Under the pieces are notes generated by a model that was given only the letters and a program-made list of their open reading frames with translations, made no database searches and was not told where the DNA came from. The position numbers were made by a program, and so were the translations under genes. 46,827 nt of DNA. It comes from Stramenopiles sp. TOSAG23-2 (Eukaryota). The first letter of the stretch is position 1. Each line of letters begins with the position of its first letter. Below are positions 4,624-7,209 of this stretch, piece by piece. The DNA is taken from contig LT649277.1 of the NCBI GenBank assembly GCA_900128395.1, forward strand, positions 1 through 46,827, read 5' to 3'.

Positions 4624-7209
4624 TTATGCGTATATTATCATCCCTTCCACTTGTTGATACCCGTTTGATCCATCTCTTTTATATTGTTGTATAGCTCTTA
4701 ATTGTGATCTCATATTAGAACTAAGTTGATTATATTGTAGGTCCAATAACTTTAATGTATTGTTTGTTTTTAATCCATCAATAATACTTTGTATTCCACT
4801 ATCATCAGTAATATTATTATTATCTAGGCGCAATATCTCTAATGTATTGTTTGTTTTTAATCCTTCACCAATACTTTGTACATCAGTAATATTATTATGA
4901 TTTAGGCCCAATTCCTTTAATGTATTGTTTGTTTTTAATCCATCAATAATACTTTGTATTCCACTATCATCAGTAATATTATTATTAGCTAGGGACAATA
5001 CCTTTAATGTATTGTTTATTTTTAATCCATCAATAATACTTTGTATTCCACTATCATCAGTAATATTATTATTAGCTAGGGACAATACCTTTAATGTATT
5101 GTTTATTTTTAATGCATCACCAATACTTTGTACATCAGTAATATTATTATTACGTAGGCCCAATACCTTTAATGTATTGTTTATTTTTAATGCATCACCA
5201 ATACTTTGTACATCAGTAATATTATTATTACGTAGGCCCAATACCTTTAATGTATTGTTTATTTTTAATGCATCACCAATACTTTGTACATCAGTAATAT
5301 TATTATTACGTAGGTTCAATGTCGTTAATGTCTTGTTTGTTTTTAATCCTTCACCAATACTTTGTACATCAGTAATATTATTATTACGTAGGAGCAATTC
5401 CACTAATGTATTGTTTGATTTTAATCCTTCACCAATACTTTGTACATTAGTAATATTATTCTCATGTAGGTACAATGTCTCTAATGTATTGATTGTTTTT
5501 AATATCACACCAATAGCTAATGCATCCTCATCCGTGAGATTCTTTTTACTCAAATCCACTTCTGTCTTCCCATCAAATTCTTTTTCCCATTTAATATATG
5601 CAGCAATAACATTTTTTTTTAGCACATCCAAATATTTACTCGTTACCTCATCAATTAAATTAATATAAGAGTTATCTTTTTCTTTTTTTTGTTTTCTATT
5701 TTTCATCATATTTTCGTAATTCTCAAACTCAAATGTATTATTCGAACGAGACTCATTTGAAAGATACAATACTTCTGTTCTGGTACACGATTCTATACCT
5801 TCTGCATTCGGGAACGAATTATAATCAATGAATAATATTTCCTCATTTTCTCCCTTTTGTATATTAACAATATTATTTTCAATAATTCTGATATTTTTAC
5901 GAAACTTTTCATCTCCAGCTTTGTAAACTATCAAAATCATACTACTGTCATCTGAAGAATATATTTTATCTTCAAGAGTTTTGTTAGTCAATAATTCAAC
6001 CCCTAATTCCTGAAATCGTGGTAAAGTTTTTTCTTGAAGAGTTTTAACTTTATGAATAATACCAGCAATTTTTTTATATTTGTCACCACCTTTATTGCCA
6101 TACTTTTCAGCGCAAATATTTTGAATCAATGTTGTAAGTTCTTTCTCTTCACAATTTCCAGAACGGACTTCTTGGACCATGTTTTTCATCTCCCCTTGTT
6201 TATTATCTCTCAAACCTTTAATTCCACTCTGATGCTTTTTGAGTTCAATTTTAAATCGCGGAAAAAAATCAAAAACGTTCTCATTCCACTTTAAAACATC
6301 ATCAATTTCTTGTTCTCGAGCAAGTAAAAACGAAATAATATTAAGTCCTTCGTCCACATTCTGTTGTTTTATTTTATAAAACAAAGTTGATACATTATCA
6401 ACAAAGTTACTTATTGGTTCTAATCGTATGAATAATGGTTTTCCAACTTTACACTTGTCAAACCCTATCACTAAATCAGTTTTTATAAATGTTATAGCTT
6501 TTTCTAGAGAAACGCAATGAGGTGATTTTATATCTGAATCATCCGAGGAAAAGTTAGAAGAAAATGATTCACTATCTGATGTTTCATTTGATTCATTACT
6601 TCTTTTGTGACTTCCTCCTGCGCTATAGAGCTTTAAAGCTTTCGCCTCTAAACTTCCTTCTCCGCTTTTTCTATTTTTAATTTCACTAGTTTGAAGTTTA
6701 CTAGAAAATTCAAAATATGCCCTTGTACCATACTTAACTGCTGTAATAACATGCGTCCCCTTGGAGCAGTGATTTAGGGTCGCATCGCAATTCCTAATAT
6801 CTTGTTTTAACGTTGTAGTTTTTGTGATTTTCACAGCCTTATATGTGACAAATTCGCGTGTCTTGCTGTCACTATTTTTGCTAGATTGTAACCATTTAGC
6901 AGCACCTTTAAGTTCTCCGAAACAACAAGCGACGTCAAGCTTAAGCTGATTTTCAACGCCAAATTTTTCCAAAGTATCGCTATGATCTCCCTGTTTAAAA
7001 AAAGATGTTTCTTTGATACTATTGGCATCCCCGGCATCCTTTAAAGTATTACCTACTTGTGTATTATTTTCAATATCTTTATCACTCCACAACGAAAAGC
7101 TTTGGGGTGTCAAGGTTCGCAAATCATATACATACCCTAATTTGGCATATTCATCCACAAGAGGAAAGTTTGTAACAGTTCCATTGGAAACATTTGCCAA
7201 GCTTGCCAT
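4624..7209 (-). CDS. Stonustoxin/neoverrucotoxin-like pore-forming region fused to C-terminal RI-type leucine-rich repeats
   Basis: Intronless 861-aa ORF. N-terminal motifs LGYVYDLR..SLW, GELKGAAKWL, GTHVITAVKYGTRAYFEF, PLFIRLEPI and VRSG resemble stonustoxin-family motifs. Ten 26/29-aa LRRs (LxxLxLxxNNIT) at about 4720-5500. Confidence 0.8.
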   Translation of the reverse strand: MASLANVSNGTVTNFPLVDEYAKLGYVYDLRTLTPQSFSLWSDKDIENNTQVGNTLKDAGDANSIKETSFFKQGDHSDTLEKFGVENQLKLDVACCFGELKGAAKWLQSSKNSDSKTREFVTYKAVKITKTTTLKQDIRNCDATLNHCSKGTHVITAVKYGTRAYFEFSSKLQTSEIKNRKSGEGSLEAKALKLYSAGGSHKRSNESNETSDSESFSSNFSSDDSDIKSPHCVSLEKAITFIKTDLVIGFDKCKVGKPLFIRLEPISNFVDNVSTLFYKIKQQNVDEGLNIISFLLAREQEIDDVLKWNENVFDFFPRFKIELKKHQSGIKGLRDNKQGEMKNMVQEVRSGNCEEKELTTLIQNICAEKYGNKGGDKYKKIAGIIHKVKTLQEKTLPRFQELGVELLTNKTLEDKIYSSDDSSMILIVYKAGDEKFRKNIRIIENNIVNIQKGENEEILFIDYNSFPNAEGIESCTRTEVLYLSNESRSNNTFEFENYENMMKNRKQKKEKDNSYINLIDEVTSKYLDVLKKNVIAAYIKWEKEFDGKTEVDLSKKNLTDEDALAIGVILKTINTLETLYLHENNITNVQSIGEGLKSNNTLVELLLRNNNITDVQSIGEGLKTNKTLTTLNLRNNNITDVQSIGDALKINNTLKVLGLRNNNITDVQSIGDALKINNTLKVLGLRNNNITDVQSIGDALKINNTLKVLSLANNNITDDSGIQSIIDGLKINNTLKVLSLANNNITDDSGIQSIIDGLKTNNTLKELGLNHNNITDVQSIGEGLKTNNTLEILRLDNNNITDDSGIQSIIDGLKTNNTLKLLDLQYNQLSSNMRSQLRAIQQYKRDGSNGYQQVEGMIIYA
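4720..5500 (-). repeat. Coding tandem array of 78-bp and 87-bp LRR units
   Basis: Near-identical units aataatattactgatgtacaaagtattggtga... (26 aa) and ...actgatgatagtggaatacaaagtattattga... (29 aa). Confidence 0.95.

Follow-up and report, generated by a model that had tools for sequence, protein, structure and literature searches.

The g1 gene and the LRR modules of the window

The stretch of DNA analysed here (the window; 46,827 nucleotides, contig LT649277.1 of assembly GCA_900128395.1) comes from an uncultured, unicellular marine stramenopile, Stramenopiles sp. TOSAG23-2. It carries an intact gene, g1, that ends in an array of leucine-rich repeats (LRRs), together with further LRR modules (Table 1). 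The g1 array spans 4627-5607 on the minus strand, within the ORF 4624-7209. TRF resolved it into 8.9 copies of a 78-nt period with 88% matches, and the Pfam profiles LRR_4 (3.5e-19), LRR_6 (4.9e-11) and LRR_1 recognised it, all over their curated cut-offs.

Table 1. Features of g1 and of the other LRR modules, in positions of the window
Feature	Position	Strand	Description	Basis
g1	4624..7209	-	Intact 861-aa ORF: stonustoxin-type MACPF and helical domain, linker, LRR module	ORF list
g1 N-terminal MACPF/CDC-like and helical domain	5950..7182	-	Putative pore-forming effector, aa ~10-420	
g1 linker	5608..5922	-	aa ~430-534, low model confidence	
g1 LRR N-cap	5503..5568	-	Common to many paralogs; helix and first strand in model	Translations of loci, model
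g1 full LRR units	4774..5502	-	Nine units, six of 26 aa and three of 29 aa	Codon table, TRF
g1 terminal LRR strand and C-terminal cap	4627..4773	-	Stop codon 4624-4626	
3' non-coding tail of g1	4571..4623	-	Family-specific, conserved	Alignment of 32 module ends
Orphan LRR cassette	8350..8788	+	~3 units, cap and tail; head-to-head with g1; no N-terminal domain	
Second LRR module	30935..31665	-	6 units, cap and tail; two-unit block duplicated	TRF period 165
N-cap and one unit	31775..31950	-	Unit duplicates first unit of second module	
Inverted foreign piece between duplicated units	31641..31774		Resembles linker of TIR-helicase-LRR paralogs	
SAM-like, protein-kinase and WW ORFs	32965..35107	-	Upstream of second module	Pfam, TRF

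Taken by itself, g1 matched the Pfam profile Stonustoxin_helical weakly (19.6 bits against a cut-off of 27). A phmmer search with its N-terminal part returned 255 relatives at E<=1e-3; all nine relatives that were scanned carried both Stonustoxin_helical and MACPF_SNTX, and six of the nine carried Thioredoxin_11, while a thioredoxin-like domain was not detected in g1. The AlphaFold model of the N-terminal part, confident over aa 8-429 and with pLDDT <50 over aa 430-566, found its best PDB match in stonustoxin (4wvm_B, E 5.7e-13, 434 columns), followed by other MACPF/CDC proteins of perforin-like and cholesterol-dependent cytolysin folds. Residues T152, H153 and G161 were invariant across 55 sequences. 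Together, the fold match of the model and the domains of the relatives assign to g1 the order seen in stonustoxin-type proteins, a MACPF/CDC fold followed by a helical domain. Stonustoxin ends in a PRYSPRY domain. Like it, g1 has a recognition-type domain behind the MACPF/CDC-like and helical domains, but the LRR module takes the place of the C-terminal PRYSPRY, and identity is 15-17%.

A Pfam scan of g1 found no NACHT or NB-ARC NTPase domain. Searching with the full-length protein gave one weak match only, because the search words were drawn from the N-terminal part. In a word look-up, RNA runs contained small shares of the sequence words, from which we draw no claim about expression.

The orphan cassette lies 1.1 kb upstream of g1 and includes a 322-nt inverted repeat that is 89% identical to 4571-4892. 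One of its units is broken by 34 unrelated nucleotides, and the cassette is probably a pseudogene or gene fragment. In the second module the tail motif occupies 30956-30973, and the inverted piece beside it is probably an amplification or assembly chimera. Farther upstream, 100%-identical tandem duplications of 106-117 nt break the frame across the SAM-like, kinase and WW ORFs, which are likely to form, with the second module, one kinase-LRR gene damaged by misassembly; this gene has kinase-LRR relatives (P0160, P0174, P0185 and P0202).

Modules of this kind end dozens of genes. Each consists of an N-cap, 2-10 units with a 29-residue penultimate unit, a C-cap and a 3' non-coding tail of about 55 nt. 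Homology between otherwise unrelated genes starts at the LRR N-cap, and that of g1 with its paralogs stops past the 3' tail. The module is joined to unrelated N-terminal domains, namely MACPF in g1 and, elsewhere, TIR plus a helicase-like NTPase, caspase, kinase, ankyrin or XK-related domains; in two paralogs (L007 and L021) TIR is combined with a ResIII/DEAD helicase-like P-loop domain. None of the paralog loci scanned encodes a NACHT or NB-ARC domain, and NACHT turned up solely in other organisms, in LRR relatives that are distant (30-41% identity).

Variation concentrated in five codons of the LRR unit

The first-pass annotation had read 21 xxLxLxx segments and described their two Leu codons as always TTG and CTA, the codon between them as ending in C or G, and the first x codon (x1 of x1-x5) as almost always ending in G. 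The window in fact offers 22 such segments, in the minus-strand units and the plus-strand cassette (8350-8740), and the description fits them: TTG and CTA occur in 22/22, the codon between ends in C or G in 22/22, and AAT is the single exception at x1. Elsewhere in the window, 19 other ORFs encode Leu by TTA at 0.63, TTG at 0.18 and CTA at 0.04, with a GC3 of 0.19. Codon bias as the cause of the constant framework was rejected, because some of the codons conserved in it are rare (4% of Leu for CTA, 18% for TTG). Several units of the window are exact duplicates of each other; in its 14 distinct full units, 58 departures from the column consensus were counted, all non-synonymous and 0 synonymous; the 70 x codons hold 41 of them and the 294 framework codons 17. 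This is an unusually clean natural case of dN far above dS.

We extended the comparison to 121 distinct units by adding 107 units from 34 metagenome loci to those of the window. Degenerate patterns back-translated from peptides served to find the metagenome loci, of which the analysis used 46 overall, and the calling of units relied on amino-acid anchors alone. The Leu pattern reaches beyond the window, with TTG in 121/121 and CTA in 112/121 distinct units. The x codons vary at letters 1-2 and to a large extent keep an ancestral third letter: G at x1 in 101 of the 121 units, A at x2 in 90, C at x3 in 100, and T at x4 and x5 in 110 and 111, respectively.

Rather than spreading evenly once more units were aligned, variation stayed concentrated in the x codons. 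Amino-acid entropy from x1 to x5 was 2.2, 3.5, 3.7, 3.5 and 1.7 bits, against at most 1.65 bits in any framework column. The 121 units hold 115 distinct x combinations, rich in D, Y, S, R, T, N and H, and linkage is slight between x positions 3-9 nt apart. Deviations from the column consensus numbered 390 non-synonymous and 18 synonymous in x codons versus 175 and 67 for framework codons (odds ratio 8.3, p 6e-17; p-values here come out too small, as the units lack independence). Pairwise pN at x codons was 0.51 versus a framework pS of 0.09, and tree parsimony gave 27.7 non-synonymous changes per x-codon site versus 4.2 synonymous changes per framework site, with a rather high framework dN/dS of about 0.65. 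In a 98%-identical pair of loci (L004 and L005) the enrichment was only about three-fold, with 5 non-synonymous changes in 45 x codons versus 8 in about 215 framework codons, and 5 synonymous framework changes.

The model of the LRR module (pLDDT 93.5, pTM 0.89) has DSSP strands on x2-L-x3 in each unit, alternating with helices. Ribonuclease inhibitor, NOD2, NLRP3 and Roco LRRs head the list of its PDB matches, with E about 1e-12. By their profile matches and by the curved solenoid of the model, the g1 repeats are of the RI/NLR-like LRR class. The model supports a location of the hypervariable xxLxLxx positions on the concave beta sheet, the predicted binding face. Codon counts, the pairwise and parsimony statistics, and this predicted location thus all point to positive selection at a few codons of the binding surface.

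Selection versus targeted mutation

For the variable codons the first-pass annotation had offered two alternatives, diversifying selection acting on an alike repeat framework, or a targeted or templated mutagenesis resembling that of DGRs. The former agrees with non-synonymous change being concentrated in x codons, at predicted beta strands, and with the signs of unit duplication and exchange described below. The latter, in which a DGR-like or deaminase-like mutator rewrites the x codons, draws on their extreme diversity against an almost invariant background, on the scant linkage between such close positions, and on the NNC/NNT shape of x3-x5, which recalls AAY-derived DGR codons.

The third letters of the x codons serve as an internal control that tells selection from hypermutation. 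The synonymous deviation rate was not elevated at x codons, with 18/605 (3.0%) there versus 67/2541 (2.6%) in the framework (p 0.68), and four-fold codons kept the consensus third letter in 173/190 cases at x positions versus 733/777 in the framework. Pathway-averaged synonymous estimates for x codons (pS 0.27; 11.8 per site) look raised because multi-letter codon differences inflate them, and direct counts were used instead. Third letters at x codons change almost only where the amino acid changes, which argues against a mutator, since a mutator cannot 'know' the effect of a change on the amino acid. A tally from the codon lists shows that four-fold codons at x2 keep their third-letter A in 41/42 cases. 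At x3 the final C is kept whatever the amino acid, as in Ser TCC (16/16; genome use 8%), Asp GAC (13/13; 10%) and His CAC (12/12; 6%), and the codons that end otherwise mostly specify Trp, Glu, Lys or Leu, which NNC codons cannot encode.

Nor is the substitution spectrum specific to adenine. Of 188 inferred single-letter changes at x codons, which include all 12 change types, 71 (38%) start from A, close to the 68/169 (40%) in the framework, and framework A's adjoining the x codons do not vary. The earlier remark that the window lacks a reverse transcriptase is borne out in the 17 large ORFs scanned, which contain neither an RT nor a deaminase domain; the Pfam scan of g1 and its neighbouring ORFs likewise gave no RT domain. 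Variable regions of DGRs usually take C-type-lectin or Ig folds, and the varying domain here is an LRR. The x-codon pattern is therefore supported as diversifying selection on the concave LRR face, not DGR-like or other local hypermutation, and we regard a targeted mutator as highly improbable.

Possible exchange of units and a candidate sensor family

Adjacent pairs of units are repeated within g1, one pair exactly and one with a single framework codon changed, and the codon table of the window contains an exact unit pair two units apart. Two 96%-identical genes (L015 and L036) differ in 7/10 x codons, by 14 letters, and their framework changes cluster in the same unit; another pair (L017 and L022) has a homology breakpoint inside the array. 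Contigs that skip exact units are a further sign of exchange. Paralogs of the N-terminal part show mosaic synonymous divergence (0.09-0.65). Copying at the DNA level is also suggested by the C-cap, frozen at synonymous sites in 29 paralogs, rare codons included (conserved Gly 9%, Val 14%), and by the module's DNA identity, which carries on into the non-coding 3' tail. LRR units thus appear to be duplicated and swapped between genes, in short-read and amplified single-cell assemblies that could hold chimeras.

At synonymous framework sites, units of one array are as far apart as units of different loci (0.090 vs 0.091), and units of one assembly are no closer than units of different assemblies, the window being an exception (0.033). 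These equal distances do not in general demonstrate local homogenisation, and a fairly young birth-and-death family would fit them equally well. Orthologous flanking sequence was found at one locus alone (L038), and it is nearly identical to the window (pS 0.008). More distant relatives, clearly separate species, have Topo I identities of 86% and 73%. A cross-species test of synonymous constraint therefore has no power, given this near-identity and the lack of species-specific homogenisation between assemblies.

Alternatively, framework, cap and tail could be fixed by purifying selection on the nucleotide sequence itself, for recombination competence or for reading at the RNA level, for instance as targets of small RNAs, with the x codons still under selection. 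The first Leu codon is more rigid than the average framework site, as it is never replaced by the preferred synonym TTA (0/121 units, 0/29 caps), whereas other G/C-ending synonymous sites drift (AAC to AAT in 5/121; third letter of x1 from G to A in 17/121); the rigidity of TTG also counts against the reading favoured below. The 3' tail is family-specific, and its 18-nt core occurs three times in the window, each time just past an LRR module, and is exact in 12/46 loci; contigs from the sequencing runs are deep over 4501-4601. The equality of within-array and between-locus distances also agrees with such constraint, as does the miRNA targeting predicted for brown-alga LRR exons in a table note of Zambounis et al. 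2012 (PMC3341825). Against it, synonymous framework sites do on average vary, and the tail has no Rfam match in the window and folds no better than shuffles (z 0.89, 0.71 and -1.73). We consider sequence-level constraint unlikely, while giving it some weight.

We compared contigs, not reads, of four sequencing runs, among which allelic or somatic variants are inseparable from paralogs. The array collects hundreds of short contig pieces, and a single contig covers the N-terminal part of g1 in two runs; this part is identical in runs X1 and X2. Among the 26 array variant places listed, 16 fall in x codons, 15 of these at letters 1-2. Some contigs skip exact multiples of the LRR unit, as would be expected of somatic or clonal cassette assembly like that of lamprey VLRs, in which orphan cassettes (8350-8788, for example) would serve expressed genes as unit donors while a cell line lives. 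The inverted orphan so close to g1, and a framework near-identical throughout and hence ideal for copy-choice or conversion, suit this idea too. However, g1 is complete and open, unlike the unfinished germline gene from which such assembly starts; the orphan, with its disruption, has the look of a decayed fragment; the joints in the contigs may simply be paralogs; and the scanned ORFs yielded no deaminase. Such assembly is very unlikely.

Still less credence is due to an assembly or amplification artefact, that is, a framework made uniform by collapsed or consensus-polished repeats. Tandem duplications and a chimeric insert do mark the neighbourhood of the second module, several loci have frameshifts inside their arrays, and unit order may be wrong in short-read assemblies. 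Yet the same units and frozen codons recur in the four sequencing runs and across six or more independently named contig sets, and the x1-x5 block is only 21 nt long, so that a single k-mer or read covers each combination. Moreover, an artefact would not confine amino-acid-changing variation to surface positions.

We therefore favour, as probable, a fast-diversifying LRR sensor module on cytosolic receptor-like proteins, shaped by common recent descent or exchange together with strong selection. All units would stem from one recent ancestral unit or be kept alike by exchange. Point mutation at an ordinary rate would supply variants, from which strong diversifying selection would fix those that alter the amino acids of the binding face. 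The near-identical framework would let unequal crossing-over and gene conversion multiply, remove or exchange entire units, inside one gene or from gene to gene, and each gene could in this way acquire a new surface in a short time. If NLRs and stonustoxin-type proteins are a guide, the N-terminal effector, which in g1 would be a MACPF-type pore former, would be released once the LRR binds its ligand.

A bolder version, to which we assign little probability, holds that framework, cap and tail are kept because the module is a dedicated recombination substrate, with a genome-wide pool of hundreds of LRR units diversified beforehand, and of orphan or inverted cassettes such as the one facing g1 (8350-8788), copied into expressed genes, perhaps within clonal or somatic time. 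If true, the receptors of a unicellular marine predator would make up a combinatorial and anticipatory repertoire, coupled to effectors of the pore-forming, caspase, TIR and kinase types.

Under the favoured sensor-module reading, this would be a large family built like an immune repertoire, combining a portable, diversifying LRR sensor with cell-death and signalling domains, and it offers candidates for the sensing of viruses, bacteria, prey or non-self by protists. We know of no recognition or immune system described for uncultured marine stramenopile flagellates. Our search of the literature in main texts found no description of this LRR-module family in marine stramenopiles, and the term 'leucine-rich repeat' does not occur in the main text of a 2018 single-cell genomics paper on uncultured stramenopiles.

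The family has its nearest parallels in the NLR repeats of fungi (WD, ANK and TPR) and the LRR exons of brown algae, and it carries their pattern, near-identical repeats with hypervariable surface codons, over to the intron-less LRR arrays of a unicellular eukaryote. The available text of Dyrka et al. 2014 (PMC4986451) describes highly conserved WD40, ANK and TPR repeats in fungal NLR-like (STAND) proteins such as Podospora HNWD, with a few hypervariable binding-surface positions under positive selection and exchange within and between members (citing Paoletti 2007 and Chevanne 2010 for HNWD), variously combined N-terminal effectors, some TIR-related, and, within that text, no LRR repeats. The stramenopile family shares the near-identical repeats, hypervariable surface positions and varied N-terminal effectors; in contrast, its repeat is an LRR, its scanned loci lack NACHT and NB-ARC, and its host is unicellular and marine. 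Mean amino-acid identity is 0.76 among the 26-aa units of g1, 0.89 among its 29-aa units and 0.74 among all units (nucleotide identity 0.85-0.95). The fungal repeats are defined by >85% amino-acid identity over at least 100 residues, and the values of 0.74-0.76 fall short of this entirely because of the five x positions, 5/26 positions being hypervariable.

The available text of Zambounis et al. 2012 (PMC3341825) presents the LRR-ROCO, LRR-kinase and NB-ARC-TPR families of Ectocarpus, whose single-repeat exons are shuffled, as candidate immune receptors with positively selected LRR sites on the concave face. Both systems have a stramenopile host, selection on the concave face and some kinase partners, and the shuffling of LRR units in and among loci that Ectocarpus shows appears to occur here too. 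Synonymous freezing and a common 3' tail are not among the features described in that text (PMC3341825). The TOSAG23-2 arrays differ further in being continuous intron-less ORFs, with units of 26 or 29 residues, not 24, so that exchange would be recombination in coding DNA rather than exon shuffling. In place of ROC-COR they have MACPF, TIR-helicase, caspase, ankyrin and XK-related partners. The work of Zambounis and colleagues on the Ectocarpus families has a 2024 follow-up (PMC11378527).

DGRs and lamprey VLRs likewise combine a constant scaffold with variation limited to chosen codons or cassettes, but here the spectrum is not adenine-specific, no template or RT was found in the window, the local mutation rate is not raised and the germline gene is complete. 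LRR domains of plant and animal NLRs and TLRs are under diversifying selection at xxLxLxx, in repeats that are old and divergent at synonymous sites. The stramenopile module belongs to the same fold class, with matches to NOD2 and NLRP3, and varies at the same solvent-exposed positions, but all its units are near-identical in DNA and it is portable between unrelated genes.

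LRR units and their codon framework

The segment at 4720-5500 is part of an intact 861-residue ORF (g1), whose last 327 residues form an LRR array (period 78 nt, 8.9 copies, 88% matches) assigned by Pfam to LRR, with LRR_4 at 3.5e-19. Codon by codon, the array reads as nine full units of 26 or 29 residues, a terminal strand and a cap. The first-pass annotation had described LRR codons varying at letters 1-2 in a framework conserved even at synonymous sites, and this description holds; the five variable codons of xxLxLxx are numbered x1-x5 below. Both Leu codons are invariant, TTG and CTA, in all 22 window segments; the codon separating them ends in C or G in 22/22, and x1 ends in G in 21 of the 22, in keeping with the earlier "almost always". 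Window units carry the same framework codons, synonymous letters included: across 14 distinct full units there are 0 synonymous departures from the column consensus and 58 non-synonymous ones, 41 of them in the 70 x codons. Codon bias is ruled out as the cause, because the 19 other window ORFs prefer TTA for Leu (TTA 63%, TTG 18%, CTA 4%) and have a GC3 of 0.19.

Related loci were collected from metagenome contigs with back-translated degenerate peptide patterns, which hold no preference for particular synonymous codons; the scan gave 46 loci of similar base composition. Units were called by amino-acid anchors alone (L.L..N.[IL] at both ends, 26 or 29 residues apart), and irregularly spaced units were left out. 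Of the 127 units called, one, from an unrelated LRR protein (L042), was removed; the remaining 126 came from the window and 34 loci and comprised 121 distinct DNA sequences. TTG is found in 121/121 of these and CTA in 112/121; of the neighbouring Asn codons, the first is AAC in 116/121 and the second AAT in 104/121. The pattern of frozen framework and hypervariable x codons is thus confirmed and general beyond the window. A single orthologous flank was present in the set and has a pS of 0.008 relative to the window, which indicates that the loci belong to the same lineage or to very close ones.

As a separate observation, the first Leu codon changed from TTG to the preferred TTA in 0/121 units and 0/29 caps, unlike other G/C-ending synonymous letters, which drift at 4-15%.

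Selection and mutation at the x codons

Variation did not spread evenly once more units were aligned. Amino-acid entropy at x1-x5 is 2.2, 3.5, 3.7, 3.5 and 1.7 bits, and framework columns reach at most 1.65 (121 units). The third letters of the x codons nevertheless have a clear consensus (x1 G 101, x2 A 90, x3 C 100, x4 T 110, x5 T 111; n=121), which is independent of the residue: at x3, Ser is TCC in 16/16, Asp GAC in 13/13, His CAC in 12/12, Tyr TAC in 18/19 and Arg CGC in 8/9, codons that otherwise serve 3-15% of the respective residues in this genome. The x3 codons without a final C mostly encode Trp, Glu, Lys or Leu, which NNC cannot encode.

Synonymous letters within the hypervariable codons provide an internal control for the mutator reading of the first-pass annotation, which had set targeted or templated, DGR-like mutagenesis beside very strong diversifying selection. 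Relative to the column consensus of the 121 units, x codons show 390 non-synonymous, 18 synonymous and 197 unchanged codons, and the framework 175, 67 and 2299; the non-synonymous/synonymous contrast has an odds ratio of 8.3 (p 6e-17). The synonymous deviation rate is not raised (3.0% at x vs 2.6% in the framework, p 0.68), and among four-fold degenerate codons the consensus third letter is retained by 173/190 at x and by 733/777 in the framework. In pairwise comparisons, x codons have a pN of 0.51 (0.60-0.66 for x2-x4) and the framework a pS of 0.09, a Jukes-Cantor ratio of roughly 9-15. Parsimony on FastTree trees, which are poorly resolved, and with recombination ignored, counts 27.7 non-synonymous changes per site at x vs 4.2 synonymous changes per framework site. 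By the same count, per-column dN/dS exceeds 1 at x4 (7.5), x3 (3.7), x2 (2.8) and x1 (1.3) but not at x5 (0.8). All 12 single-letter change types occur at x codons, and changes starting from A make up 71/188 there vs 68/169 in the framework.

A code-blind or adenine-specific mutator would also hit synonymous letters, the A in third position of x2 and neighbouring framework A's; we reject it because these are left unaltered. The internal evidence thus speaks against the DGR-like reading, and the 17 other large window ORFs contain no reverse transcriptase, deaminase or transposase domain, in agreement with the earlier remark that the window lacks a reverse transcriptase. The mutation rate at x codons appears ordinary, and selection for amino-acid change probably produces their pattern. 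The diversifying-selection reading is supported.

In LRRs, it is established that the x residues of xxLxLxx are solvent-exposed on the concave sheet. Modelled with AlphaFold (pLDDT 93.5, pTM 0.89), the module forms a regular solenoid of strands and helices in which every strand coincides with x2-L-x3, and its best PDB matches are the LRR domains of ribonuclease inhibitor, NOD2, NLRP3 and Roco. The 121 units hold 115 different x combinations, with positions almost unassociated; D, Y, S, R, T, N and H are commonest at x2-x4.

A module with varied partners

The non-repeated C-terminal cap is likewise frozen at synonymous sites, rare codons included, in 29 paralogs (32 caps found, 3 divergent or gapped ones excluded). 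Beyond the stop, about 55 nt of non-coding sequence are shared before homology ends abruptly. The window has three copies of the 18-nt core of this tail, all directly behind LRR modules and none behind another gene, and 12 of the 46 loci contain it exactly; the tail has no match in Rfam, and its predicted fold is not significant. Upstream, homology of otherwise unrelated genes starts at a common N-cap. The module is a portable DNA unit.

Its N-terminal partners differ widely between genes. In g1 the partner is a stonustoxin-type MACPF plus helical domain (fold match of the model to 4wvm, E 5.7e-13; the Pfam content of those scanned among 255 distant relatives agrees). Others are a TIR plus ResIII/DEAD helicase-like NTPase (L002 by translation, L007 and L021 by Pfam), ankyrin (L001), XK-related (L012), a caspase domain (protein P0157) and kinases (P0160 and the second window module). 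No NACHT or NB-ARC domain was seen among the module genes scanned, and the family therefore does not consist of NLRs in the strict sense.

In one ORF (L008:3518-5563) two complete modules of N-cap, units and cap follow one another, as would result from the loss of a stop codon between tandem modules. Frame shifts occur inside the arrays of L002, L007 and L017, so that the module resumes in a different frame; either pseudogenes or errors of sequencing or assembly in repeats would account for them.

Features of the window
Feature	Position	Strand	Remark
g1	4624-7209	minus	MACPF-LRR gene
Orphan cassette	8350-8788	plus	fragmentary, partly disrupted LRR; head-to-head with g1
Topoisomerase I	17058-19244	minus	
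Second LRR module	30991-31665	minus	
Extra duplicated first unit of second module	31775-31950	minus	
Tandem duplication	32031-32266		two copies, ~72-126 nt, exact or near-exact
Tandem duplication	32616-32835		as above
Tandem duplication	33042-33255		as above
Tandem duplication	34021-34232		as above
Tandem duplication	12215-12537		two copies, ~72-126 nt, exact or near-exact
Tandem duplication	19669-19848		as preceding
Tandem duplication	23781-23952		as preceding

The window has a G+C content of 30%, every annotated gene is a continuous ORF, and marine metagenomes and small runs contain its sequence. For topoisomerase I, the closest named relatives are oomycetes and other stramenopiles (55-57% identity), and marine relatives reach 100, 92, 86 and 73%. 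The other genes of the window are ordinary housekeeping ones (SDR, DHDPS family, aquaporin, Atg22-like MFS, Sel1 repeats, Nnf1, ceramidase-like, cathepsin, a DWNN/U-box zinc-knuckle protein).

A fungal survey describes NLR-like proteins whose WD, ANK and TPR repeats are highly conserved and evolve in concert, with hypervariable, positively selected sites on the binding face, and states that LRRs were not found (PMC4986451). In the brown alga Ectocarpus, single-repeat LRR and TPR exons are shuffled and the concave face is positively selected (PMC3341825). Unlike both, the unicellular stramenopile described here has continuous, intron-less LRR arrays; a cap and a non-coding tail belong to the module; and the partners are MACPF, caspase, TIR-helicase and kinase. 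Literature searches, supplements not covered, turned up no description of this LRR family, which appears to be a variation on known fast-evolving repeat receptors, its receptor role being putative.

Possible duplication and exchange of units

Repeat homogenisation, the other part of the selection proposal, fared less uniformly. In g1 one adjacent unit pair is identical, a second differs by one framework codon, and four units start with a common unusual 5' half but diverge from one another at x3-x4; the second module contains a duplicated two-unit block. The genes of L015 and L036 are 96% identical, with 22 letter differences over 320 N-terminal codons; 7 of the 10 x codons nevertheless carry 14 letter differences, and five framework changes are grouped within the same unit, a pattern suggestive of a replaced unit. 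L017 and L022 have 2.2 kb in common at 96.7%, beginning inside the array, with different upstream parts, and synonymous divergence between TIR-helicase paralogs is a mosaic (0.09-0.65). These are signs of duplication and exchange. Framework synonymous distance, however, is equal within arrays (0.090) and between loci (0.091), and it is no lower within an assembly, the window's own units (0.033) excepted; in L004/L005 (98% identical) x-codon enrichment is just three-fold, with five synonymous framework changes.

Short-read and amplified single-cell assemblies produce chimeras. Within the window, four tandem duplications of 106-117 nt have 100% identical copies; those in the kinase and WW ORFs disrupt the reading frame, and the tandem duplications look like contig-join or amplification artefacts. 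An inverted fragment at 31641-31774, resembling the linker of a TIR-helicase-LRR paralog and lying between two copies of one LRR unit, is probably a chimera. Given the equal distances, L004/L005 and possible chimeras, concerted evolution of the units is plausible, though unproven, and the case for diversifying selection is independent of it.

In two coded single-cell-sized runs, one contig spans the N-terminal part of g1 without difference, and 410 and 244 contig pieces pile on its LRR part. Among 40 of 237 variant rows, 16 of 26 array variant places lie in x codons, 15 at letters 1-2.

The orphan cassette and 4571-4892 (minus) form an inverted repeat (322 nt, 89% identical) covering the last units, cap and tail of g1; recombination between its arms would flip the g1 body and exchange its terminal units. 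A 44-nt element (84% identical) at 4354-4397 and 7235-7278 lies immediately upstream of the start codons of two adjoining minus-strand genes, the DHDPS-family gene and g1, and may be a common promoter element or a small duplication.
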